Assembly (NCBI GenBank): GCA_944392425.1
Contig: CALXWM010000001.1
Location: forward strand, 23,589 to 87,588
Direction of reading: 5' to 3'
DNA length: 64,000 nucleotides
Source of the DNA: an uncultured Clostridia bacterium
GTDB taxonomy: Bacteria; Bacillota; Clostridia; TANB77; CAG-508
Position 1 is the stretch's first letter. Every line of letters begins with the position of its first letter. Below, one piece after another: positions 4,407 to 57,155 of this stretch. The position numbers were made by a program, and so were the translations under genes. Below the pieces are notes generated by a model. The model was not told where the DNA came from, searched no databases, and saw nothing but the letters and a program-made list of their open reading frames with translations.

Positions 4407-5126
4407 ATGGAAAGAATAGATGATTTACAATATAAAGGTTTAAAAATAATTCAAAACACAGAAGGCTTTTGCTTTGGCATAGATAGTGTCTTACTTACAG
4501 AATTTGCAAAGGATATGAAAAAGCATAGTTCAATAGTAGATTTGGGAGCAGGCACAGGGATAATAGGAATATTACTTAGTAAAAAGGTAGAAGCTTCAAA
4601 AATAGTCGGTGTCGAAGTTCAAAATGATGTAGCCCAAATGGCTAAAAGAAGTGTTGAATTAAATAATCTACAAAATATAATGAGCATAGTTAATGAAGAT
4701 GTGCAAAATCTAAGTTTAGAAAAAAACTCTTTTGACTATGTAGTAACAAATCCACCATATAAGAAAAAAGGTACGGGAATTATAAATCAAAAAGATAAAC
4801 AAATAATTTCAAGGCATGAAACAACAGTAGATTTAGAGGGATGGATAAAGGTTGCAAGTAAATTATTAAAAGATAATGGTGCAATATATATGGTGCATAG
4901 ACCTGAAAGGCTTAATGAAATAATAGAAATATTAAGAAAATATAGGTTAGAACCAAAAAGAATAAGATTTGTATATCCTAAAATAGATAAAGATGCAAAT
5001 TTAGTATTAATAAAAGCTGTAAAATATGCAAATTCTTTCCTTAAAGTAGAGAAGCCATTAATAATATATAAAAATGACGGAAGTTATACAGATGAAATAT
5101 TAAAAATATATGAAGAGGGAAAATAA
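4407..5126 (+). CDS. Class I SAM-dependent methyltransferase, tRNA (adenine37-N6)-methyltransferase (TrmN6/YfiC)-like
   Basis: SAM motif I DLGAGTGIIGI. N6-adenine MTase motif IV NPPY (VTNPPYKKK). Confidence 0.6.
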   Translation: MERIDDLQYKGLKIIQNTEGFCFGIDSVLLTEFAKDMKKHSSIVDLGAGTGIIGILLSKKVEASKIVGVEVQNDVAQMAKRSVELNNLQNIMSIVNEDVQNLSLEKNSFDYVVTNPPYKKKGTGIINQKDKQIISRHETTVDLEGWIKVASKLLKDNGAIYMVHRPERLNEIIEILRKYRLEPKRIRFVYPKIDKDANLVLIKAVKYANSFLKVEKPLIIYKNDGSYTDEILKIYEEGK

Positions 5127-7508: not shown

Positions 7509-9863
7509 AAATTATTTTTATTATATTAAACTAATTAAAAAAATTAAATAGAAATAAAAAAATAAATAAAAAATAATTAAATAAATAAAAAAATTAAATA
7601 AATAAAAAAATAAATAAATAAATAATTAATTAAATAAAAAAATAATTAAATAAAATAAATAATTAAAATAAAAATATAAAAAATAGAAAAACAATTAATA
7701 ATAAATTAAATAAAATATAAAAAAGAAATAAAAATTTTTATTAATGTTAATATAAAAATAAATATGTATATTAAAAAAATATATATAAGATAAAAAACAT
7801 AAAGTTATTTACAAATTGACAAAACTAAATTTAAAATTTAAAAAATAATTTAAAAAATCTTCTGAATAAAAACTCTTAATTACTAGATAAAAATTTAAAT
7901 AAAAATCTAAAATTTATTAAGGAATAAAAGATTTTAAGAATTAACTTGTCTAAAAATAGCAAAACTATAAAACATTTAAATTGTATACATAAAGTAAAAA
8001 ATATATAACTTAATGAACTAAATTATAAAAATAAAATAATATTATTGTCTTTTTGATAAAGTGAGAAGTGTCGAAAAAAAGCAAAAAATGTACAAAAAAA
8101 TGATAAAAAACTTAAAAAATAAATTATAATGGGCAAAATAATAATAAAAAATTAAAAAGAATGAGTGACAAAAAGACAAGATTTAATTTGAATTAATTAT
8201 ATTAATAAAGCATAATTTATTAAAAATTGTAAAAATAATATGAAAAAAGGTAGATAATAATTGGAAAAAATATATTCAAAAGCCTAAGGAATTAGCTAAA
8301 AACAGATTTTTTGAATTTCTTAACAAATTATTTTAATAAGGATAAAATAAATTAAAAATAAATAATTATTTTGAAAAGGTAAAAAATATTTTATTAATAA
8401 TTGTTAAAATGACAAAATTAAATTTACAGTAAATTTAACCTTTTTAGTGTAGAAATATAGTACCAGGTTTAAATATGGAATAAAACTAAAATATTTTATT
8501 AGAATTAATAATTTATATTTTATAAAAAATATAAATTAAACAAAAATATAAATTAAACAAAAATATAAATTAAAGAAAAAAATAAATTAAATAAAAAATA
8601 AATTAAACAAAAAACTAAAATAAATTAAATAAAAAATAAATTAAATAAAAAATAATTAAATAAAATAAATTAAATAAAAATAAATAAAATAAAATAAAAT
8701 AAATTAATAAAATTAAATAAATATTAAATTAAAAATAAATAAAATATTCAGAACTAATTAAACATACCCAAGATATATTTTATTATAATCAAAAAATTGA
8801 TATAGAAGTAAATATATTAAATTAAAAAATTAATATCTATATAAAAAGATAAATATATTATAATATTTTATAAGTTTTAATAAATTAAATGTAAATAAAT
8901 GAATTTGTTTTACAAATTGACAAATCTCGAATTGGTAAAAAAATGAATTCCAGTAAAAATACTTTAAATTGATTTCAACAATTTTGAGTATAAATGATAC
9001 TATGGACTTCTTCAAATACTGAGGAAATAAGACTTTTGAGAAGAAGGTTTAATCTTCTTAAAAGAATTCAAACTTCAAAAAATGGTATACATAAACATTG
9101 AAACGACAATACTGTACAGAAGATGTACTTTTATCAATTGTCTTTTTGAATAAACGAAAAATAAGAAATATAATAAAAAAAGCTTTTTAAAAACTTAAAA
9201 AGCGCAAAAAAATTGAAAAAATGAAATAAAAATTTAATAGATAAAAAAATAATTGATTGGCAAAAAAGCAAAAAATAAAATTGAGTTAATTACATAGAGA
9301 TTAACAAAAAATCGAAATGGCGTCAATAATATGATTTAAAACTAGAGTGTTTTCTGAAAAAATATTTTATTTTTTGCTAAGGGATAGGCAAAAAATTGAA
9401 TTTTTTGCTTTGATGAAAGATTTTGGAACTTTAATTAAATTTATGTAGAATTTTTTAAAGAAAGATTGGAGTGATACAAAAATAAAAAGGACAGTTGTTA
9501 AATTGACAAGATAATGCTAACAACTGAAAATGGTAGAGTATGGCAAAAAAGATAGCTATATATAACACCAGATGGACAATTTAAAAATATAAAATTAAAA
9601 CTGATAATAAATAATAAAAAAATAAAATAATTAAAAAATAAAATAATAAAAAAATAAAATAATTAAAAAATAAAATAATTAAAAAAATAAAATAATTAAA
9701 AAAATAAAATAATAAAAAAATAAAATAATAAAAAAATAAAATAATTAAAAAATAAAATAATTAAATAAAATAAATTAAATTATAATAAAATTAATTAATA
9801 ATAAAAAAATAAACTTAATAAAAATATTAAGCTTATTTTTTAAATAATATTAATTTAATAAAA
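7509..9863. repeat. 2.35-kb non-coding AT-rich (>85% AT) tract with three low-complexity tandem arrays (about 7545-7700, 8520-8720, 9596-9790)
   Basis: No ORF of 60 aa or more on either strand. 17-19 bp units such as AAAATAAAATAATTAAAAA occur about 10 times at 9596-9790. Normal-complexity islands at 8890-9140 and 9290-9560 carry TTGACAA -35-like boxes. Confidence 0.7.
9805..9841. terminator. Bidirectional terminator downstream of the MBL-fold gene
   Basis: Hairpin AACTTAATA...TATTAAGCTT flanked by A/T runs. Confidence 0.45.
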
Positions 9864-13524: not shown

Positions 13525-14772
13525 ATGGACGAAAAATTAAAGCAAATTGAACAAATACTTAAAAAGTATGGCCAGGAGCAACTATTACAAGGATATAATA
13601 GGCAACCAGGCGAAAAAGAAAAGGAAGAATTCTTAAATGATCTTCTTACAATTGACTTCGCACAAATTGAAAAATTATACGAAGCAAGCAAAAAAGCAAA
13701 AGACTTTTCAGAGTCAAAAATTGAACCAATTGATTTTGTAGACAAATCTAAATTATCTAAAGAAGAGTATGCAAAATATGAAAAAATCGGTTCAGAAAAA
13801 ATTAAAGAAGGTAAACTAGCTGTAGTTACAATGGCTGGTGGACAAGGAACTAGACTAGGACATACAGGGCCAAAAGGAACATATGACTTAGGATTAGACT
13901 CACACAAATCTATATTTGAAATTCTTACTGACACACTAAACGAAGCAAGAAAAAAATATGGTGTGGATATTCCTTGGTATATAATGACAAGTGAAGAAAA
14001 TAACGAAGCAACAGTTAATTTTTTCAAAGAACACAATTTCTTTGGATATCCAGAGAGCTCAGTAACATTCTTCAAACAAGGCAAATTACCTATGCTTAGC
14101 ACAGATGGAAAAGTGCTTTTAAATGAAGAAGGAAAAATAAAAGAAGCAGCAGATGGACATGGTGGAATATTCCAATCAATGCTAAAAGATGGTGTTATTT
14201 ATGACATGAAATCTAGAGGAATTGAATGGGTATTTATAGGCGGAGTTGACAATGTTTTAGTAAACATGGTTGACGCTGTTCTAATAGGTTTAGCAGAAGA
14301 TAAAAATGTGCTAGCAGCAGGAAAAAGTATTGTTAAAGCAGGACCAAAGGAAAAAGTTGGTGTATTTTGCAAAAAGAATGGTAAACCAAGTGTTATTGAA
14401 TATAGCGAAATTTCTGAGGAAATGGCAGCTGAAACAACACCAGATGGAGAGTTAAAATATGGAGAATCACATATTTTATGTAATTTATTTAATATAAAAG
14501 CTATTGAAAAAATTAGTAAAATGGATTTACCATACCACGTAGCTTTCAAAAAAGCTAAATATTTAGATAAAGATGGAAATATTGTTTCACCTGATAGCCC
14601 TAATGCATACAAATTCGAATCTTTCTTATTTGATGCTTTTGAAAGTTTAGATGATATGGCTATATTAAGAGTAAAAAGAGAAGACGAATTTGCACCTGTT
14701 AAGAATGCGGAAGGTGTAGATAGCCCAGAAACAGCTAGAAAATTATATACAGATTTTCATAGCAAAAAATAA
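13525..14772 (+). CDS. UDPGP-family UDP-sugar pyrophosphorylase (eukaryotic-type UDP-GlcNAc / UDP-glucose pyrophosphorylase-like)
   Basis: Nucleotidyltransferase motif VVTMAGGQGTRLG plus the UDPGP core. Followed by a phosphohexomutase gene. Confidence 0.7.
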   Translation: MDEKLKQIEQILKKYGQEQLLQGYNRQPGEKEKEEFLNDLLTIDFAQIEKLYEASKKAKDFSESKIEPIDFVDKSKLSKEEYAKYEKIGSEKIKEGKLAVVTMAGGQGTRLGHTGPKGTYDLGLDSHKSIFEILTDTLNEARKKYGVDIPWYIMTSEENNEATVNFFKEHNFFGYPESSVTFFKQGKLPMLSTDGKVLLNEEGKIKEAADGHGGIFQSMLKDGVIYDMKSRGIEWVFIGGVDNVLVNMVDAVLIGLAEDKNVLAAGKSIVKAGPKEKVGVFCKKNGKPSVIEYSEISEEMAAETTPDGELKYGESHILCNLFNIKAIEKISKMDLPYHVAFKKAKYLDKDGNIVSPDSPNAYKFESFLFDAFESLDDMAILRVKREDEFAPVKNAEGVDSPETARKLYTDFHSKK

Positions 14773-14780
14773 TTAGTAAT

Positions 14781-14905
14781 GGTTGAAAAATAATTGCGTT
14801 TTGGCGTCGTTTAACTGCGCTGCGAAGGTCCTCAATGTGCAAAAAAGCACACTTCCGGCCTTCTTGCTTGTTAGCCTAGCCAAAATCACAATTCTTTTCC
14901 AACCT
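14781..14905. repeat. Palindromic element P2a (about 125 bp) between the UDPGP and phosphomutase genes
   Basis: About 90% identical to 29679-29804. Arms GGTTGAAAAATAATTGCGTTTTGGC / GCCAAAATCACAATTCTTTTCCAACC. Centre GTGCAAAAAAGCAC. Confidence 0.6.
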
Positions 14906-14938
14906 ATTTTAAAATATAGGAAATGAAAGGAACTTAAA

Positions 14939-18923: not shown

Positions 18924-18998
18924 TGTTTCCGTAGCTCAGTTGGATAGAGCAATCGCCTCCTAAGCGAGAGATCGGCAGTTCGACTCTGCCCGGGAACA
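18924..18998 (+). tRNA. tRNA-Arg (anticodon CCT)
   Basis: Cloverleaf: acceptor GTTTCCG/CGGGAAC, D-arm GCTC..GAGC, anticodon loop CTCCTAA, T-arm GGCAGTTCGACTCTGCC. Genomic CCA follows. Confidence 0.85.
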
Positions 18999-22666: not shown

Positions 22667-22758
22667 GAAGAGATACCGAAGTGGTCATAACGGAACTGCC
22701 TCGAAAGCAGGTGGTCACATTTAGTGGCTCGTGGGTTCGAATCCCACTCTCTTCGCCA
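22667..22758 (+). tRNA. tRNA-Ser (anticodon CGA), long variable arm
   Basis: Acceptor GAAGAGA/TCTCTTC, 3-bp D stem, anticodon loop CTCGAAA, long extra arm, T-arm GTGGGTTCGAATCCCAC. Genomic CCA follows. Confidence 0.8.
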
Positions 22759-23650: not shown

Positions 23651-23790
23651 AGGGTATGAGAATGTTTCTTTATAGAGGATATTCTCAATAAAAGGCTATG
23701 AATCTTGTCAGGACCGGAAGGTAGCAGCAATAAGTAGATTCTTTTATGTGGGGATATCCTCTATGGAGAAAGGTTTTTGTACCTTTATTT
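23651..23790 (+). ncRNA. ffs: Signal recognition particle RNA (scr/ffs)
   Basis: Conserved domain-IV motif GTCAGGACCGGAAGGTAGCAGC at 23708-23729. Flanking helix TATAGAGGATAT/ATATCCTCTATGG. Terminal hairpin AAAGGT-TTTTGT-ACCTTT followed by a T-run. Conserved position upstream of dnaX. The ends are approximate. Confidence 0.75.
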
Positions 23791-29543: not shown

Positions 29544-29574
29544 TGTGTCAGTAGGGACGCTCCTGTTTGACACA
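29544..29574. repeat. GGGACG-loop hairpin H1
   Basis: TGTGTCA-GTAGGGACGCTCCTGTT-TGACACA. 24/28 identical to 50471-50497. Confidence 0.6.
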
Positions 29575-29678
29575 GTTTATTAGTGAAAAATTCCTACTTG
29601 TAAATTTCATCTTATTGTCATATAATTAACGCAAATTTAATAATAATTTATTAAGTTGGTAAAATTATTTTAAGGATG

Positions 29679-29804
29679 TAAAGTTTAAAAATAATTGCGT
29701 TTTGGCGTCGTTGAACTACGCTACGAAAATCCTCAATGTGCCTAAAAGCACACCTCCGGTTTTCTTGCTTGTTCGCCTAGCCAAAAGCACAATTCTTTTT
29801 AAAC
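29679..29804. repeat. Palindromic element P2b between ypeB and murF
   Basis: Copy of 14781-14905 with paired substitutions: GGTTG/CAACC becomes GTTTA/TAAAC, and GAAGG/CCTTC becomes GAAAA/TTTTC. Confidence 0.6.
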
Positions 29805-29837
29805 TAGATATAGACCTTAAAAAGAAATGAGACAAAA

Positions 29838-33409: not shown

Positions 33410-34225
33410 ATGTCAAATATTAAAGTAAACAAAGTTGACGCACCACTTTTAGATGATTATGTCTTTAAGCGTACATTTACAAGAGATGATCCAAATGGAA
33501 TACTTAAAGATTTTTTAGAAGCAGTATTAAAAATAAAAATACATAATGTACAAGTATTGAATGCAGAAATACCAAAGGACTTGTTAGATGAAAGAGGAAG
33601 CGTTTTAGATGTTAGAGCGGAGTTAGACAATAATAGAATTGTAGATATCGAGATGCAAGTAAATGATGAAGGCAACATAGATAAACGCAGTTCAGTGTAT
33701 ATGAGTAAAAATATTTCGACTCAAATAAAAGTTAGAGAAGATTATAAAGGCTTAAAACCATCAATAGTGATAAACATTTTAAATTTTAATAGATATAAGA
33801 GAAATAGCTACCACTCAGTGGCACATATGAAATTTGAAAAAACAAGTCAAGAAGAATATGTAGACTTAGGATACAAAAAGGAAGAAGAAAATGCAACAGA
33901 TGTGCTAGAAATGCACTTTATAGAATTGCCAAAATTTTTAAAGAAAAATCCTGAAGCAAAGACTAGCCTAGAGCAATGGCTATGGCTGATAGCAGGAAGG
34001 GAGGACAAAGTAAAAATGTCAAAGTTAGATAATCCAGAAGTAAAAAAAGCGATGAAGTTGGTAGATGAAATAATGTCAGACCCAAAAGAAAGAGAAATAA
34101 TCGAAGCAAGAGCAATGGCAAAGTTTAACTATGACACAGGAGTAGCATATGCCAAAGAAACTGGCAAAAAAGAGCGGAATTCAAGAAAACAAAAAAGAAA
34201 TGGCCAAAAGGATGAAACAACTTAA
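33410..34225 (+). CDS. Rpn-family PD-(D/E)XK nuclease paralog. Its C-terminal helix continues in the +1 frame to 34298 (frameshifted).
   Basis: N-region matches the 17053 paralog (DYVFKRTF...IVDIEMQ). After the stop at 34223-34225, the alternate frame reads AKRMKQLKMADDQICQILNISTEELKKLIND, matching the conserved family C-terminus. A poly-A run at 34156-34162 is the likely slip site. Confidence 0.65.
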   Translation: MSNIKVNKVDAPLLDDYVFKRTFTRDDPNGILKDFLEAVLKIKIHNVQVLNAEIPKDLLDERGSVLDVRAELDNNRIVDIEMQVNDEGNIDKRSSVYMSKNISTQIKVREDYKGLKPSIVINILNFNRYKRNSYHSVAHMKFEKTSQEEYVDLGYKKEEENATDVLEMHFIELPKFLKKNPEAKTSLEQWLWLIAGREDKVKMSKLDNPEVKKAMKLVDEIMSDPKEREIIEARAMAKFNYDTGVAYAKETGKKERNSRKQKRNGQKDETT

Positions 34226-50558: not shown

Positions 50559-50620
50559 AGCATCTGAATGAACTCAATTGGAAAAAGTAGAGTTCAAATA
50601 GGTGCTTTTTATTTTTTTTA
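50559..50620 (+). terminator. Terminator of the fab/acc operon
   Basis: Imperfect hairpin AGCATCTGAATGAACTC...GAGTTCAAATAGGTGCT followed by TTTTTATTTTTTTT. Confidence 0.5.
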
Positions 50621-51575
50621 TTTAATAGAAAAAAATAATTAAATAAAAATAATTAAATAAAAATAATTAAATAAATAATTAATTAAAAACAATAAAAAAA
50701 TTAAAATAATAAAAAAATAAATAAAAAAAATAAAAAATAAAATAATTAAAAATAAATAATTAATAAAAATAAATAATTAATAAAAATAAATAATTAATAA
50801 TAAATAAATTAAATTATTAAATATAAAAATTAAATAAGAAAATTAAAGAATCTTACTAATTAAAATAATAATTAATAAATAGAAAATATTTAAAATAAAA
50901 AATTAAAAATTAATAATTAATTTTTTAATCTATAAAAAAGAAATTGTCAAATAGTCTAATTACTTTTTAAAAAATACATTAATTTAAATTAATAATTAAA
51001 AGGAAAAATAAATTAATTACAAAATAAAACAAATAATTGTGTACAACAAAAAAATTAGAAAAATCAAAAATACTTAAGGAATTAACCATTTGAAAGGATT
51101 TTTTTTATAAAAAACTCACAAAAGTATAAACAAAAATTGTAAACATAATATTGAAAAATGGAATAAAAATATATAAAAACCATTAGTAAAAATAATAAGA
51201 AAAATCAATAAAAAAGAATAAAATATCAGATGTGACTAAAAGACAAAATTTAAAATTAATGTTTATAATAAAAAATAATATTAATTTTATATAATAAAGC
51301 TCTTGCGAAAATCTGTTTGATATGATATAAATATATATAATTAGTTAATTAAATAATAAAGATAAATTAATTTATAAAAAATAATAAATTAAAAGATAAA
51401 TAATAAAAAATAAATAAATTAAAAATAAATAAATTAAAAATAAATAAATTAAGAATAAATAAATTATAATAAATAAATAATAATTAAATTAGTTAATAAA
51501 ATAATAAATTATTAATTTTAAAAAGCTAAAATAAATTAATTATTAATAAAAAAATAATTAAAGAAAGGATAAATA
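50621..51575. repeat. ~1-kb non-coding AT-rich tract with tandem arrays (for example 50621-50830, 51340-51540)
   Basis: No ORFs. 14-17 bp units AAAAATAATTAAAT and AAATAAATAAATTAAAA repeated 3-4 times. Same motif family as 7509-9863 and 52617-52730. Confidence 0.7.
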
Positions 51576-52616
51576 ATGAAATTTGTACATATAGCCGATG
51601 TTCATTTAGATACTCCATTTAAAACAATTAGTGATAGAGCAGATATAGGAGTAGAGAGAAGATTAGAGCAAAGAAATGCTTTAAAAAAAGTTATAGATTA
51701 TATTAAAGAAAATAATATTGAATATTTATTTATTAGTGGAGACTTATACGATCAAGAATATGTTAGAGAAAGCAGTATAAGATTTTTAAATGATTTATTT
51801 AGTGAAATACCAAATACAAAAATATTTATTGCACCAGGAAATCATGATCCTTATATAAAAAATTCTTTTTACTTTACTTTTTTATGGAACAGCAATGTAA
51901 AGATATTCACAAATATTGTAGAAAAAGTGGAAAACAATGATGTAAATATTTATGGATTTGGGTTTAATAATTTTGAAATGAATGAAAATCAAATAAAAGA
52001 TATTATTTTAGACGAACCAGAAAAAATAAATATATTAATTACACATGGAGATTTAGGTGAATCTAAATATAATCATATGAATTTAAATGAAATAAAATCA
52101 AAAGGTTTTGATTATGTTGCACTTGGTCATATTCACAAAAGAGATGATAGTACAAATATTGTTTATCCTGGCTCATTAATTTCTTTAGGTTTTGATGAAT
52201 TAGGTGAACATGGTATGATTGTTGGAGAAATTATTGATAAAAAATTAAATAAAGAATTTGTCAAAGTTGATGACAGAGAATTTGTTGAATTTGAATTAGA
52301 TGTTAGCAATATTATATCTGAAGAAGAATTAATAGAAAAAATAAATAACATTAATGAAGAAAATAAATTATATAAAATTATTTTAATAGGTTATAGAAAT
52401 TTCCCAATAAATATTGATATTAAATTAATAAATAAAAATATTATTAAAATAAAAGATAATACAAAATTAAAAATTGATTTTAAAGAAAATAATAATACAT
52501 TAAAAGGATTATTTATTAAAAAATTAAATGAAAGAAAAAATAATAATTTAATTGATGAAAAAACTTTTGAGAATATTTTAGAAATTGCTGAGCAGGCTTT
52601 GGGAAAAAATAAATAA
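51576..52616 (+). CDS. SbcD/Mre11-family metallophosphoesterase nuclease (YhaO-like)
   Basis: Calcineurin-like motifs HIADVHLD, GDLYD, GNHD, HGD, GHIH. Confidence 0.75.
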   Translation: MKFVHIADVHLDTPFKTISDRADIGVERRLEQRNALKKVIDYIKENNIEYLFISGDLYDQEYVRESSIRFLNDLFSEIPNTKIFIAPGNHDPYIKNSFYFTFLWNSNVKIFTNIVEKVENNDVNIYGFGFNNFEMNENQIKDIILDEPEKINILITHGDLGESKYNHMNLNEIKSKGFDYVALGHIHKRDDSTNIVYPGSLISLGFDELGEHGMIVGEIIDKKLNKEFVKVDDREFVEFELDVSNIISEEELIEKINNINEENKLYKIILIGYRNFPINIDIKLINKNIIKIKDNTKLKIDFKENNNTLKGLFIKKLNERKNNNLIDEKTFENILEIAEQALGKNK

Positions 52617-52730
52617 TTAATTAAATAAAAAAATAAATTAAAAATATGTAAAAAAATTAAAATAATAATAAAATAAATAAATTTAAAATAATTAATTTAA
52701 ATAATTAAAAATTAAAAGGAGAAAATTATT

Positions 52731-54665
52731 TTGAAAATAGAAAATATAAAAATTAATTCATATGGTAATTTAAAAAATAAAGAAATTAATTTAAAAAAAT
52801 TAAATATTATTTATGGAAAAAATGAAAGTGGAAAATCTACACTATTAAATTATATAAAAAATATTTTTTATGGAATATCAAAAAATAAAAATGGAAGAGA
52901 TATTTCAGATTATGATAAATATTTGCCATGGGGTGAAAATGATTTTTCTGGAAAAATAAAATATTCATTGGATAATAATTTTAATTATGAAATATATAGA
53001 GATTTTAATAAAAAAAATCCAGTAATATATAATGGTCAAATGGAGGATATTTCTAATAATTTTAAAATTGACAAAAAGACAGGAAATCAATTTTTTATTG
53101 AACAAACAAATGTCGATGAAAGCACTTTTATGTCAACAGCATTTTCAATGCAAAAGGAAGTGGTTGTAGATAGTGGTACGCAAGGTATTTTACTACAAAA
53201 GGTTGCAAACCTTGCGGAAAGTGGTTCAGAAGATGTGTCATATAAGAAGGCATTGAGCAACATTAATACTATGTTACTTAATGAGGTGGGTACATCAAAT
53301 AGTAAGGAAAGACCTATTAATATAGCAGAAAGTAATATCAAAAAGTATACAATTGACCTAATGACAATAAATGATGTAAAAAATAATAGGTATGAAATTG
53401 AGGAAAAAATTAATAATTATAAGCAAGAAATAAATATAGAAAATAAAAAAGATAAATTATTAAATTCTGTAAAAGAAATAATTGATAAAAATAAAATAGA
53501 AAAAGAAAAAATAAAATTAAAAAATAATATTTTAGAAGAAAATAATAATAAAATTAAAAATTTAGATAATGAAAAAGATAATTTATTAAATAAAATAAAA
53601 AATACAGAAAATATTTTTGAAAATAATTTAAAAAATAAAAAAATAAATAATAAAAATAAAATTATTAATTTTGTTATTTTAATTTTTTTAATAACAATTA
53701 ATATTTTAAATTTTATTTTTATAAAAAATATAATAATTAATATTTTATTATTTTTATTAATTCCAATTTATTTAATTTATTTTTTTATTAAATTAAATAA
53801 AAATAAAAAAATAAAAATAGAGGAAGAAAATAAATTAAATAAAATTAATTCGGAAAATGAAGAAATAAAAAAACAAATGAATATTTTAGATGGGCAAATA
53901 GAATTATTAGAAAAAAATTCAGAAGATACGAAAAATGAAATTGAAAAAATAGAAAATAATTTAAATAATAAATTATTAGAAGAAAAAAATGATATTATAG
54001 AAAATAATAAAAATAATTTTTCAGAAGATTATATTAATGATTTATTTAATTCAAATATTGATTTGTTAATTAATACAAATCAAAGAAAAATTAATGAACT
54101 AAATTTACAAATACATAAATTAGAAATAGATAGAGATAATATTGACCCAAAATTAGAAAAATTAATACATACAGAAGAATTATTAGAAATAGAGCAAGAA
54201 AATTTAAACAAATTGCAAAATAGAGCAGAAGAACTTAATTTAGCTAAAGTTATTTTGGATGAAGCTTATACTGAGATGAAGAAAAATATTACACCAAAAT
54301 TTAATCAAAGCTTATCTAAAAATGTAGAAAAAATATCTGATGGAAAATACAAAAATATTATAATTAATGATAAAATAACCGTAGAATTAGATGATGGTAG
54401 ATATGTTCCGGCGGAAAGTTTAAGTATAGGAACAATTGAGCAAATTTATTTATCTCTTAGACTTGCTATAATGAATGAAATAAGCAAAGAAAAATTACCG
54501 GTTATGCTTGACGAAGCATTTGCATATTATGATGATCAAAGGTTAGAGGCAGCCCTAGACTTTTTAAATAAAATTGATAATCAAGTTATATTATTTACCT
54601 GTACAAATAGAGAAAAAGAAATTCTTGAAAAAAATAATATTGATTTTAATTTTGTAACTTTATAA
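52731..54665 (+). CDS. SbcC/SMC-like AAA ATPase with central TM hairpin (YhaN-like), TTG start
   Basis: Walker A GKNESGKST, coiled coils, two TM helices (FVILIFLITINILNFIF / ILLFLLIPIYLIYFFI), ABC signature LSIGTIEQ, Walker B VMLDEAF. RBS AAAGGAG before the TTG. Confidence 0.7.
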   Translation: MKIENIKINSYGNLKNKEINLKKLNIIYGKNESGKSTLLNYIKNIFYGISKNKNGRDISDYDKYLPWGENDFSGKIKYSLDNNFNYEIYRDFNKKNPVIYNGQMEDISNNFKIDKKTGNQFFIEQTNVDESTFMSTAFSMQKEVVVDSGTQGILLQKVANLAESGSEDVSYKKALSNINTMLLNEVGTSNSKERPINIAESNIKKYTIDLMTINDVKNNRYEIEEKINNYKQEINIENKKDKLLNSVKEIIDKNKIEKEKIKLKNNILEENNNKIKNLDNEKDNLLNKIKNTENIFENNLKNKKINNKNKIINFVILIFLITINILNFIFIKNIIINILLFLLIPIYLIYFFIKLNKNKKIKIEEENKLNKINSENEEIKKQMNILDGQIELLEKNSEDTKNEIEKIENNLNNKLLEEKNDIIENNKNNFSEDYINDLFNSNIDLLINTNQRKINELNLQIHKLEIDRDNIDPKLEKLIHTEELLEIEQENLNKLQNRAEELNLAKVILDEAYTEMKKNITPKFNQSLSKNVEKISDGKYKNIIINDKITVELDDGRYVPAESLSIGTIEQIYLSLRLAIMNEISKEKLPVMLDEAFAYYDDQRLEAALDFLNKIDNQVILFTCTNREKEILEKNNIDFNFVTL

Positions 54666-55777: not shown

Positions 55778-57155
55778 CAGGATAAAGACATGAAAAATTT
55801 TTTCATCGTCTGTATCCATTACAATTACTTGATTAAGAGATAATTGTTGTCTTGAAATTACGTAGTATTTTAAAGATTTCAATTGTCTCTTTTTCTACAT
55901 TTCTTGATATATCTTTTCTTATTCTTTTTAGGCTTTTATTTTTTATCTTTTTTACTTCATTTAATATTGTTAAACAGAACTTTTTTATTATTTGCAAATT
56001 ATATAATGCCTTCTTATTTACCGTCGTATTACTGTCACATTTAAAGGTAAAGTCCATTTGCCAATGTAATTTATTCTCCACATTCCAATGTTTTCTTATT
56101 GCATTTGAAAATTCTGCTGTATTTAACAATAAGCTTGAAATGTAATATCTTTTTTCTTCTACTTTACTTCCATCTGCTTTTTCTATGGTCTTTTTTACTA
56201 AGCCTATACTTTTTAATCCTTCCCATTCCTTATATTCTGCATACCATTTTACATCCTCTGTTTGATAATATTCATATGTTATTATTCCACTATGACTTTT
56301 TTCTCTGGTTAGTAAATATCCTCCTTCATAGCCTGATTGTATTAGTAGCAGTTTATCTTCATCAAAGTAATCTTCTACATCTTGATAAAAATTACCATGG
56401 TTTCTTTTTAAAGCTACACAATAGTCTCCTTTTTTAGAGATTACTGCTTTTATATTCTCCTTTTGCGTATTCAATGCATCCCATGTGCATATTGCTCCTT
56501 TTAAATCTAACCTTTTTATTATTTCTGGTATTCCTGTTATTTCATTTGTTTTTTCTTCTATTAGTTCTTGCCCTATGCACATATTTAATTTGTCTGAATA
56601 TACATTTAAAACATTTAATGGCTTTACTTCTTCTGTTATATTTGCTTTCTTTCTTGCACTTCCTTGGTCAACTTTTCCATCAAATGAAAATATGTCTTTA
56701 AATGTTTTATCTTCCATAAATTGTATTTCTTTTATGAAGTCGACAAATATTTTATTTAATTCTTGGCTATCTATTATGCTTATTACTCTTTCGTAAGTTT
56801 TAGCAGATGGAATTCCTCCAGTTAGTTTTAAAAATGTTTTTAAAAATTCTTTTTCATCTTTAGCATAATCTTCTATTTCTTCCCATTCATTACAATCTGC
56901 TAAAACTGCTAGAATTACTACAACAACTATATCCCAAATTTTATATGTGATTTTGCCTTTTTGTCTCTCATCTTTTAACATCATCGATTTTTCCTTCAAT
57001 TCTTTTAATTTACTTATTTCTATTTCTTTTATATTCATTATCTTTTGCTCCGTTTCGATGATATTATACCGTATTTTTTGATATTTGACTACTACTTTTT
57101 ATTGACTTTTAAACATTTATTAGACTTTCTAAAATTTTTTCATGTCTTTATCCTG
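55778..57155 (-). mobile_element. ISAs1-family insertion sequence (about 1.38 kb) with ~25-bp terminal inverted repeats
   Basis: Left inverted repeat CAGGATAAAGACATGAAAAATTTT (55778-55802). Right inverted repeat AAAATTTTTTCATGTCTTTATCCTG (57131-57155), the reverse complement of the left. A single transposase ORF lies inside. Confidence 0.8.
55833..57038 (-). CDS. ISAs1-family DDE transposase
   Basis: C-terminal HWNVENKLHWQMDFTFKCD matches the ISAs1/IS4-like HWxIEN..HW..DVxFxED signature. Plus-strand ORFs 55852-56796 are antisense low-complexity noise. Confidence 0.8.
   Translation of the reverse strand: MNIKEIEISKLKELKEKSMMLKDERQKGKITYKIWDIVVVVILAVLADCNEWEEIEDYAKDEKEFLKTFLKLTGGIPSAKTYERVISIIDSQELNKIFVDFIKEIQFMEDKTFKDIFSFDGKVDQGSARKKANITEEVKPLNVLNVYSDKLNMCIGQELIEEKTNEITGIPEIIKRLDLKGAICTWDALNTQKENIKAVISKKGDYCVALKRNHGNFYQDVEDYFDEDKLLLIQSGYEGGYLLTREKSHSGIITYEYYQTEDVKWYAEYKEWEGLKSIGLVKKTIEKADGSKVEEKRYYISSLLLNTAEFSNAIRKHWNVENKLHWQMDFTFKCDSNTTVNKKALYNLQIIKKFCLTILNEVKKIKNKSLKRIRKDISRNVEKETIEIFKILRNFKTTIIS

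Follow-up and report, generated by a model that had tools for sequence, protein, structure and literature searches.

The two long hairpins in the 64-kb stretch of DNA analyzed here (64,000 nucleotides, called the window below) belong to a dispersed family of structured palindromic repeats, which is real and well supported. We read the pair, with slightly better than even confidence, as part of a large family whose members are short, palindromic, dispersed and non-autonomous, akin to MITEs or to ERIC and Correia elements, and are co-transcribed with operons. This palindromic repeat family of uncultured gut Clostridia is apparently undescribed so far, and three of its features appear to be new, namely a conserved tail that reaches the start codon, insertion beside ribosome-binding sites, and a conservation of the loop sequences that spans several phyla. 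The first-pass annotation of the window had recognized the two hairpins and had missed that they form part of a dispersed family that is gained and lost, that their internal loops are conserved, and that a 3' tail extends to the next start codon in most copies.

Copy A was located on the forward strand at positions 14781–14904, as a complete hairpin (P1–P5) running from GGTTG at 14781 to CAACC at 14904. It starts 8 nt past the TAA stop codon (14770–14772) of a UDP-glucose pyrophosphorylase-family (UDPGP) gene, and 34 nt separate its end from the phosphomutase ATG downstream (14939). Its left box TTTTGGCGTCG (14799–14809) comprises the 5' strand of P2 and the 5' side of internal loop 1 (GUC), and its right box CTAGCCAAAA (14876–14885) comprises the 3' side of this loop (CUA) and the 3' strand of P2. 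The apical hairpin TGTGC-AAAAAA-GCACA (P5, 14836–14851) is bordered on both sides by internal loop 3 (UCCUCAA / CUUCCGG). The 3' tail TATTTTAAAATATAGGAAATGAAAGGAACTTAAA (14905–14938) reaches the phosphomutase ATG, and its likeness to the tail of the family is only partial. Copy B, also complete and on the forward strand, lies in the 5' UTR of murF-ddl at 29682–29805 (AGTTT at 29682 to AAACT at 29805), with the same left and right boxes at 29700–29710 and 29777–29786. Its 3' tail AGATATAGACCTTAAAAAGAAATGAGACAAAA (29806–29837) matches the family tail AGATTTGTGCCTTAAGAAAGGAATGAGA and stops at the murF ATG (29838). Outside the repeat and upstream of copy B, a sigma-70-like promoter (TTGTAA-17-TATAAT, 29598–29626, forward strand) was predicted by consensus scan only, together with a terminator-like site at 29545–29560, and these predictions would place copy B within the murF transcript leader. 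No promoters or terminators were predicted inside the element.

Both hairpins are 124 nt long. Their mutual identity was 88–89%, close to the value of about 90% in the first-pass annotation, which had also placed the two copies to within one base. The flanks of copies A and B bear no relation to each other. One single long hairpin was the predicted fold of each copy, with folding energies of -41.5 kcal/mol for copy A and -38.5 kcal/mol for copy B (z-scores of -4.5 and -4.3), and none of 200 shuffled sequences was as stable. The element has a GC content of about 40%, compared to about 28% in the window. The 18–20-nt arm boxes occur at only two sites in the window, which are copies A and B, while 0.01–0.09 matches are expected by chance. 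Likewise, the covariance model R1 gave only two matches over the 64 kb, with 124.7 bits for copy A and 125.7 bits for copy B.

The analysis confirmed the paired two-arm substitutions that had been reported between the copies and found more of them than had been listed. In the pair map, the change from copy A to copy B consists of five double compensatory pairs and one G.U to A-U change. These are G:C to A:T at 14781/14904, G:C to T:A at 14785/14900, T:A to G:C at 14812/14873 (missing from the earlier list), GG:CC to AA:TT at 14827/14860 and 14828/14859, and G.U to A-U at 14822. The change of CTGCGCTGCG to CTACGCTACG, which had been counted as a two-arm change, turned out otherwise. Both of its G-to-A substitutions sit on the left arm, where one falls in an internal loop and the other converts the G.U pair to A-U. 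The description of the copies as near-perfect palindromes also has to be amended, since the stem contains three asymmetric internal loops that are kept by both copies.

The same architecture was found throughout the family, and the minimum-free-energy fold was identical in this respect across all subfamilies. From base to apex, the variable outer stem P1 is followed by P2 (UUUUGGC / GCCAAAA), a 3 × 3 internal loop (GUC / CUA) and P3, and then by a second loop (UKCR / CUY), P4, a third loop (YCAA / CCUCA-like), P5 (CGUAC / GUACG) and a small loop. The left box TTTTGGCGTCG was invariant in the copies selected by pattern and varied slightly in those found by the model only. Across 86 copies, 95.6% of the pair cells held standard pairs and 38 of 45 pairs had changed on both sides, in an alignment fitted to the covariance model, which favors structure. 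The covariation score of these copies was 0.355 compared to 0.108 after shuffling, and none of 500 shuffles reached 0.355. When the partners were slid, pairing fell to 30–51% of cells. A plain MAFFT alignment, however, had already given compensated changes in 20 of 28 pairs. These results bear out the earlier proposal of selection for an extended stem-loop. Because the stems are kept by compensatory change while the asymmetric loops remain constant, selection appears to act on a specific folded single strand. The persistence of the loops, with arms that have not been made identical, argues against self-correction of the palindrome. The asymmetry between G.U and A.C states was considered as proof of an RNA strand and rejected, since the ratio of 78:37 by cells is only 13:12 by columns; some G.U states are inherited across many copies, and A.C remains rare. 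In addition, deletion derivatives of 74–99 nt (L013 6518–6611, L077 3161–3259, and L088 3080–3171; L numbers denote loci and contigs) retain P1-P2-loop1-P3 at the base and have lost the apical half.

The first-pass annotation had proposed a wider census of the element. A pattern scan for TTTTGGCGTCG, a gap of 52–80 nt and CTAGCCAAAA, with one genome per species, returned at least 111 loci with several per MAG, and the covariance model R1 added 15 full or partial copies in about 805 kb of the same 8-kb blocks around matches. Among the matches listed, nearly all hosts were MAGs of animal-gut origin that carry the label uncultured Clostridia or Clostridium sp., and most host MAGs had a GC content of about 28%. 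The copy density was about one per 50–60 kb (approximately one per 54 kb in the blocks), and the two copies per 64 kb of the window are of the same order. Copies inside one genome were nearly identical. Copy B was also present in L055, L062, and L115–L117, and in exact-protein look-ups that sought empty sites, every contig reaching the sites of copies A and B was filled. Short-read Logan contigs with murF (L118, L120, and L121 at position 1; L119) begin within copy B, and assemblies are expected to break inside a repeat. In L128–L133 (3001–3111), one copy has been called as a 36-aa gene; its neighbors encode an RNHCP-domain protein and a protein with a metallo-beta-lactamase fold. This copy occurred in 145 blocks of the assembly collection, so its host species must be common in the sampled guts.

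Databases of known elements gave no counterpart. With Rfam 15, no part of the window or of 14 loci attained the gathering score, and the elements themselves gave only noise at E-values up to 10, in line with the initial impression that the hairpins match no known riboswitch. The element was not matched in the plasmid and phage collections, a viral 18-mer scan gave three chance matches only, and a literature search by sequence returned nothing relevant. One review of prokaryotic MITEs makes no mention of Clostridia or Firmicutes. A riboswitch or gene-specific leader was also rejected because the downstream genes span unrelated families.

Among the loci listed, the hairpin was co-oriented with the upstream gene in a ratio of 85:9 and with the downstream gene in a ratio of 71:23, and the L053/L081 site was the only one antisense to both neighbors. 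The downstream genes are unrelated housekeeping genes, including murF, guaA, pflA, valS, aspS, tig, ffh, fmt, and tpiA, among others. In 58 of the 66 sites with a co-oriented downstream gene, the downstream ATG lay 20–36 nt past the hairpin. For the class at 20–25 nt, this ATG is the in-frame ATG of the tail itself, 12 nt before the gene ATG, and the true distance is thus about 32 nt. On the other side, the upstream stop codon fell within -13 to +10 nt of the hairpin in 32 of 62 cases, and in ten of these the stop codon is a TAA that belongs to the element itself. Given their sense orientation at gene boundaries, the copies are predicted to be transcribed within operon mRNAs. At loci with negative GC skew, 11 of 13 copies were still co-oriented with the adjacent gene, although contig-level skew is a rough proxy of replication direction. 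Orientation therefore tracks the adjacent gene better than GC skew, which favors a constraint linked to transcription, while an oriented insertion target would give the same result. Thus, the orientation bias could stem from an oriented target motif instead of an RNA function.

The sequence after the hairpin, (AGATTTGTGCC)TTAGGAAGGAATGAGATTAAAAATG, is conserved among unrelated sites. In most Clostridial copies it forms a tail of about 33 nt that ends at the next start codon and carries an atypical Shine-Dalgarno-like AAGGAATGA. GGAATG was found in 47% of tails compared to 7% of ordinary ribosome-binding regions, while AGGAG was found in 3% of tails compared to 32% of these regions. An ordinary GGAG/GAGG peak was found 6–10 nt before the hairpin in 40% of copies, compared to 9% further upstream. 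As the simplest reading of these sequence patterns, many copies would lie downstream of a gene's own Shine-Dalgarno sequence and upstream of its start codon, with the tail serving as a substitute. By bringing its own Shine-Dalgarno-like sequence, the tail may allow insertions to be tolerated that part a gene from its native ribosome-binding site. At def-fmt and ffh, however, what follows the hairpin has its homolog in the native ribosome-binding region of an empty orthologous site, and the tail is thus not derived from the element everywhere. Two further ideas about the flanks were rejected. An extra helix between the 5' flank (Shine-Dalgarno) and a CCUU in the tail does not qualify as a selected feature, since it was hardly more stable with a copy's own sequences (-3.6 kcal/mol) than with ribosome-binding windows of other genes (-3.4 kcal/mol) or flanks of other sites (-3.3 kcal/mol), although copy B does have such a pairing of 8 bp (UUUUAAGG/CCUUAAAA). 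The upstream flank is also not a second copy of the tail, since a tail HMM matched flanks no better than background; the weak similarity between a copy's own flank and own tail (p = 0.017) was driven by a few sites.

Closely related genomes differ in the presence of the element. L018 and L112 are filled and L098 is empty at the same site, which represents a clean 155-nt indel (hairpin plus short tail) in flanks that are 95–98% identical, and the break sits directly after the TAA stop codon. Some genomes carry the element in the ylxM-ffh and def-fmt spacers where others have none, with a flank identity of 73–90%, and the ylxM-ffh spacer of L004 is among the empty ones. At the ffh site, the hairpin in L053 (3194–3333) and L081 (7253–7392) is inverted relative to L077 (7687–7826) and L096 (381–520), while the tail from the hairpin to the ffh ATG is unchanged. 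Candidate target-site duplications differed between sites, as the one clean pair allows AA (2 nt), def-fmt suggests TAAG, and a few sites show longer direct repeats, of 13–14 nt in L099 and L069 and of 13–18 nt when L070 is included. The latter derive from the ribosome-binding region (e.g., AAAGGAAGGTGAAA) and surround the hairpin plus short tail in L099 (7632–7771), L069 (5019–5158), and L070 (4368–4507); they may have arisen by tandem duplication of local sequence or as an extended duplication of the target.

In the window and the 8-kb blocks around matches, no transposase or parent element was found and no copy was split by an internal gene, and in these blocks no RAYT, Y1 or other candidate gene stood beside the copies. 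The only insertion sequence in the window, of the ISAs1 family (55778–57155), carries a DDE_Tnp_1 ORF (55833–57038, minus strand) and 34-nt terminal inverted repeats (CAGGATAAAGACATG...). It was rejected as a mobilizer because its terminal repeats are unrelated to the palindrome. Other features of the window were recorded as well. Extremely A-rich repeat blocks of about 300 nt with a period of 16–17 nt occupy 7525–7800, 8490–8745, and 9580–9830; these three are about 1 kb apart within 2.3 kb that hold no ORF of 80 aa or more, and similar repeats occur at 50600–50880. A PDDEXK_2 gene (Rpn/YhgA-like nuclease/transposase family, 33410–34225) lies about 1.2 kb downstream of the murF-ddl-HD genes, an arrangement shared by L115–L117. 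An SbcD-like (Metallophos) and SbcC-like (AAA_27) gene pair (51576–54665) is in a stretch of about 19% GC, and two tRNA genes and a small SRP RNA gene are at 18925–18998, 22667–22755, and 23672–23767.

The family was also detected outside the Clostridia. The same pattern scan returned GC-rich hairpins from Myxococcales/Polyangiaceae (L036, L095, L103, and L040), Desulfovibrio (L056 and L097), and Spirochaetales (L052 and L093), and a metagenome scan added four more (L122 and L124–L126) on contigs with 59–64% GC. A second model, R2, was trained on the Clostridial copies alone. It scored the GC-rich copies at 33–67 bits over their full length and found a second copy in L122, while the chance pattern matches L019, L110, and L123 gave no score. 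The apical block GGTCCTCAAYGTRC is common to copy A of the window, L122, and L126. Across the Clostridia, Myxococcota, Spirochaetota, and Desulfovibrio, the loops keep their sequence and the stems covary. In the GC-rich genomes, the element is found about 10 nt or less past the stop codon of a co-oriented gene, often between convergent genes. The Myxococcales/Polyangiaceae loci L036 (2844–2976), L095 (4699–4830), and L103 (5221–5352) share a conserved site with a small signal-peptide gene on one side. The product of the gene on the other side begins, judged by eye, like DUF692-family proteins, and the arrangement resembles a peptide-modification operon. The Desulfovibrio contig L056 (5.2 kb) has inverted copies at both ends (121–257 and 4963–5104), which reflect either assembly breaks at repeats or copies that bracket a segment.

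In kind, the family is closest to ERIC and Correia elements. ERIC elements or IRUs of Enterobacteriaceae and Yersinia are imperfect palindromes of about 127 bp that are dispersed in transcribed intergenic regions of operons, and in Yersinia they have orientation-dependent effects on mRNA that involve RNase E. The present family resembles them in size, in being an imperfect palindrome over its whole length, and in its dispersal in transcribed operon spacers, but it shares no sequence similarity with them and differs in its conserved 3' tail to the start codon, its fixed distance to the ribosome-binding site, and its occurrence in several phyla. Correia elements (CREE/NEMIS) of Neisseria are co-transcribed, and their paired inverted repeats in mRNA are RNase III substrates. 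As small non-autonomous palindromic repeats that are co-transcribed with genes, they would by analogy be the closest model for the proposed RNA behavior of the hairpin family. Correia elements also have 26-bp terminal repeats, a TA duplication, an IHF site, and promoter elements, none of which was found here. The RNase III signals of phage T7 are intercistronic hairpins with internal loops that separate the fates of upstream and downstream mRNA. The analogy is one of function only, since the T7 signals are not one repeated sequence, are not mobile, and have no homology to the present family. REP units are 20–40 nt long, with an unpaired GTAG or CGTC head and stems of 8–9 bp; they occur in several phyla, mostly past coding regions, with flanking genes that run in the same direction or converge, and may be RNA elements (PMC3733652). 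Both REP/REPIN and the present family are high-copy extragenic palindromes across several phyla, whereas the latter has one interrupted 60-bp stem, non-palindromic arms, and CGTC inside an internal loop. Assignment to CGTC- or GTAG-tagged REPs was rejected because these defining features failed.

The reading as MITE-like, co-transcribed repeats that we favor agrees with the many dispersed copies at unrelated sites, the whole-length palindrome that is too small for a transposase, and the insertion polymorphism. A parent insertion sequence with matching ends or a mobilizing enzyme, which would also be expected of a MITE, was not found in the window or the 8-kb blocks. The hairpin may be the part that is needed for propagation, with an enzyme acting in trans. 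Judged from sequence features, an RNA role of the hairpin is also likely. As RNA, it would form an intercistronic stem-loop that RNase III-type enzymes may process as a double-stranded substrate and/or that may shield the 3' end of the upstream cistron.

As a less probable alternative, the hairpin may primarily be a cis-acting structured RNA module whose loops bind a widely conserved protein or ligand, so that many operons would be co-controlled post-transcriptionally and spread would be secondary. Loop sequences that stay constant across the phyla, combined with covarying stems, fit this proposal, and so do the sense copies beside ribosome-binding sites or directly past stop codons. Moreover, orthologous pflA sites in three species hold diverged copies with many compensated changes. 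However, the near-identity of copies within a genome, the flanking genes with no common function, the differences in presence between close relatives, and the deletion derivatives without apical loops all speak against it.

We consider it equally doubtful that the element acts as DNA only, as a single-stranded hairpin or cruciform recognized by an HUH/Y1-type transposase (REPIN-RAYT or IS200/IS605 style) or another recombinase. In that case the RNA would have no role, and the orientation relative to genes would merely mirror an oriented target, for example an A-rich stretch past GGAGG or past a stop codon. This explanation accounts for the palindromic architecture, the gain and loss of copies, and the mini-derivatives that retain the basal P1-P2-loop1-P3 part, as well as for the A-rich left flanks, often at a fixed distance past GGAGG, and the in-place inversion at the ffh site. 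On the other hand, the orientation of the adjacent gene outperforms GC skew (2 exceptions vs. 13), the GTAG- or CGTC-headed unit of 20–40 nt is absent, and no Y1 or other candidate gene was seen beside the copies. If flipping in place is easy, the nearly uniform orientation suggests strand-specific selection. An origin as an IS200/IS605-derived palindrome was rejected, since such elements carry separate hairpins at their left and right ends and a strand bias linked to replication direction, whereas only a single hairpin is present here and orientation tracks genes (11 of 13 loci with negative skew, where contig skew is a rough proxy). A more speculative combination, to which we give a similarly low probability, is a mobile cross-phylum structured RNA module with loops read by a conserved host factor. 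It would land at translation boundaries, that is, between the Shine-Dalgarno sequence and the start codon or directly past a stop codon, and with its own replacement ribosome-binding site it would rewire the downstream translation start.

Returning to the favored reading as co-transcribed repeats, the remaining alternatives fared much worse. A conserved small protein is largely refuted and very improbable. It would be encoded by a frame of 47–48 codons that opens at a TTG of the outer stem, behind a Shine-Dalgarno sequence, crosses the hairpin and closes at a stop codon in the tail. This frame is open across the core in 91 of 106 copies, the TTG is 5–9 nt past GGAGG in many of them, and the frame often stops 3–8 nt short of the next ATG. 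But the conserved core is read in differing frames between subfamilies, 15 of the 106 copies are closed in all frames, including some with a good Shine-Dalgarno sequence, some copies have no TTG, and a mere 20 unnamed database proteins resemble the frame.

An integron attC site or an intrinsic terminator can hardly be credited. The attC sites are imperfect palindromes of 57–141 bp directly past a co-oriented ORF, with structure conserved over sequence, RYYYAAC (R'') at the 5' end and GTTRRRY (R') at the 3' end. The present element has an attC-like size and lies, as an imperfect palindrome, directly past a stop codon and shortly before the next gene. However, its ends GGTTG...CAACC are the reverse of the attC order, the core-site sequence also differs, the flanking genes are conserved housekeeping operons, and there are no cassette arrays and no integrase context. 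As the first-pass annotation had stated for a terminator, the element has no T-run; there was no terminator call at either copy, and copies are found inside operons. Recent duplication of a local segment and mere chance as the source of the two hairpins, for which the presence of two copies only in the 64-kb window might speak, are already refuted by the at least 111 loci at unrelated sites in many genomes and by the unrelated flanks of copies A and B. The first-pass annotation would have abandoned its proposal if the two copies were the only ones and came from a segmental duplication, or if further copies carried random, unpaired substitutions; the many loci elsewhere exclude the former, and the substitutions in the further copies are paired.

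Provided that the family has been read correctly, the poorly known uncultured gut Clostridia gain a widespread repeat class, and assembly breaks in their MAGs are explained. Its placement is unusual, since start codons are at a fixed distance from the hairpin, the native Shine-Dalgarno sequence is displaced upstream, and the element supplies another. This makes it a natural system for studying how a long hairpin in the translation initiation region is tolerated or used. Furthermore, the conservation of the loops from Bacillota to Myxococcota and Spirochaetota points to a conserved partner, be it the enzyme behind the movement of the element or an RNA-reading protein, which could be found through phylogenetic profiling.
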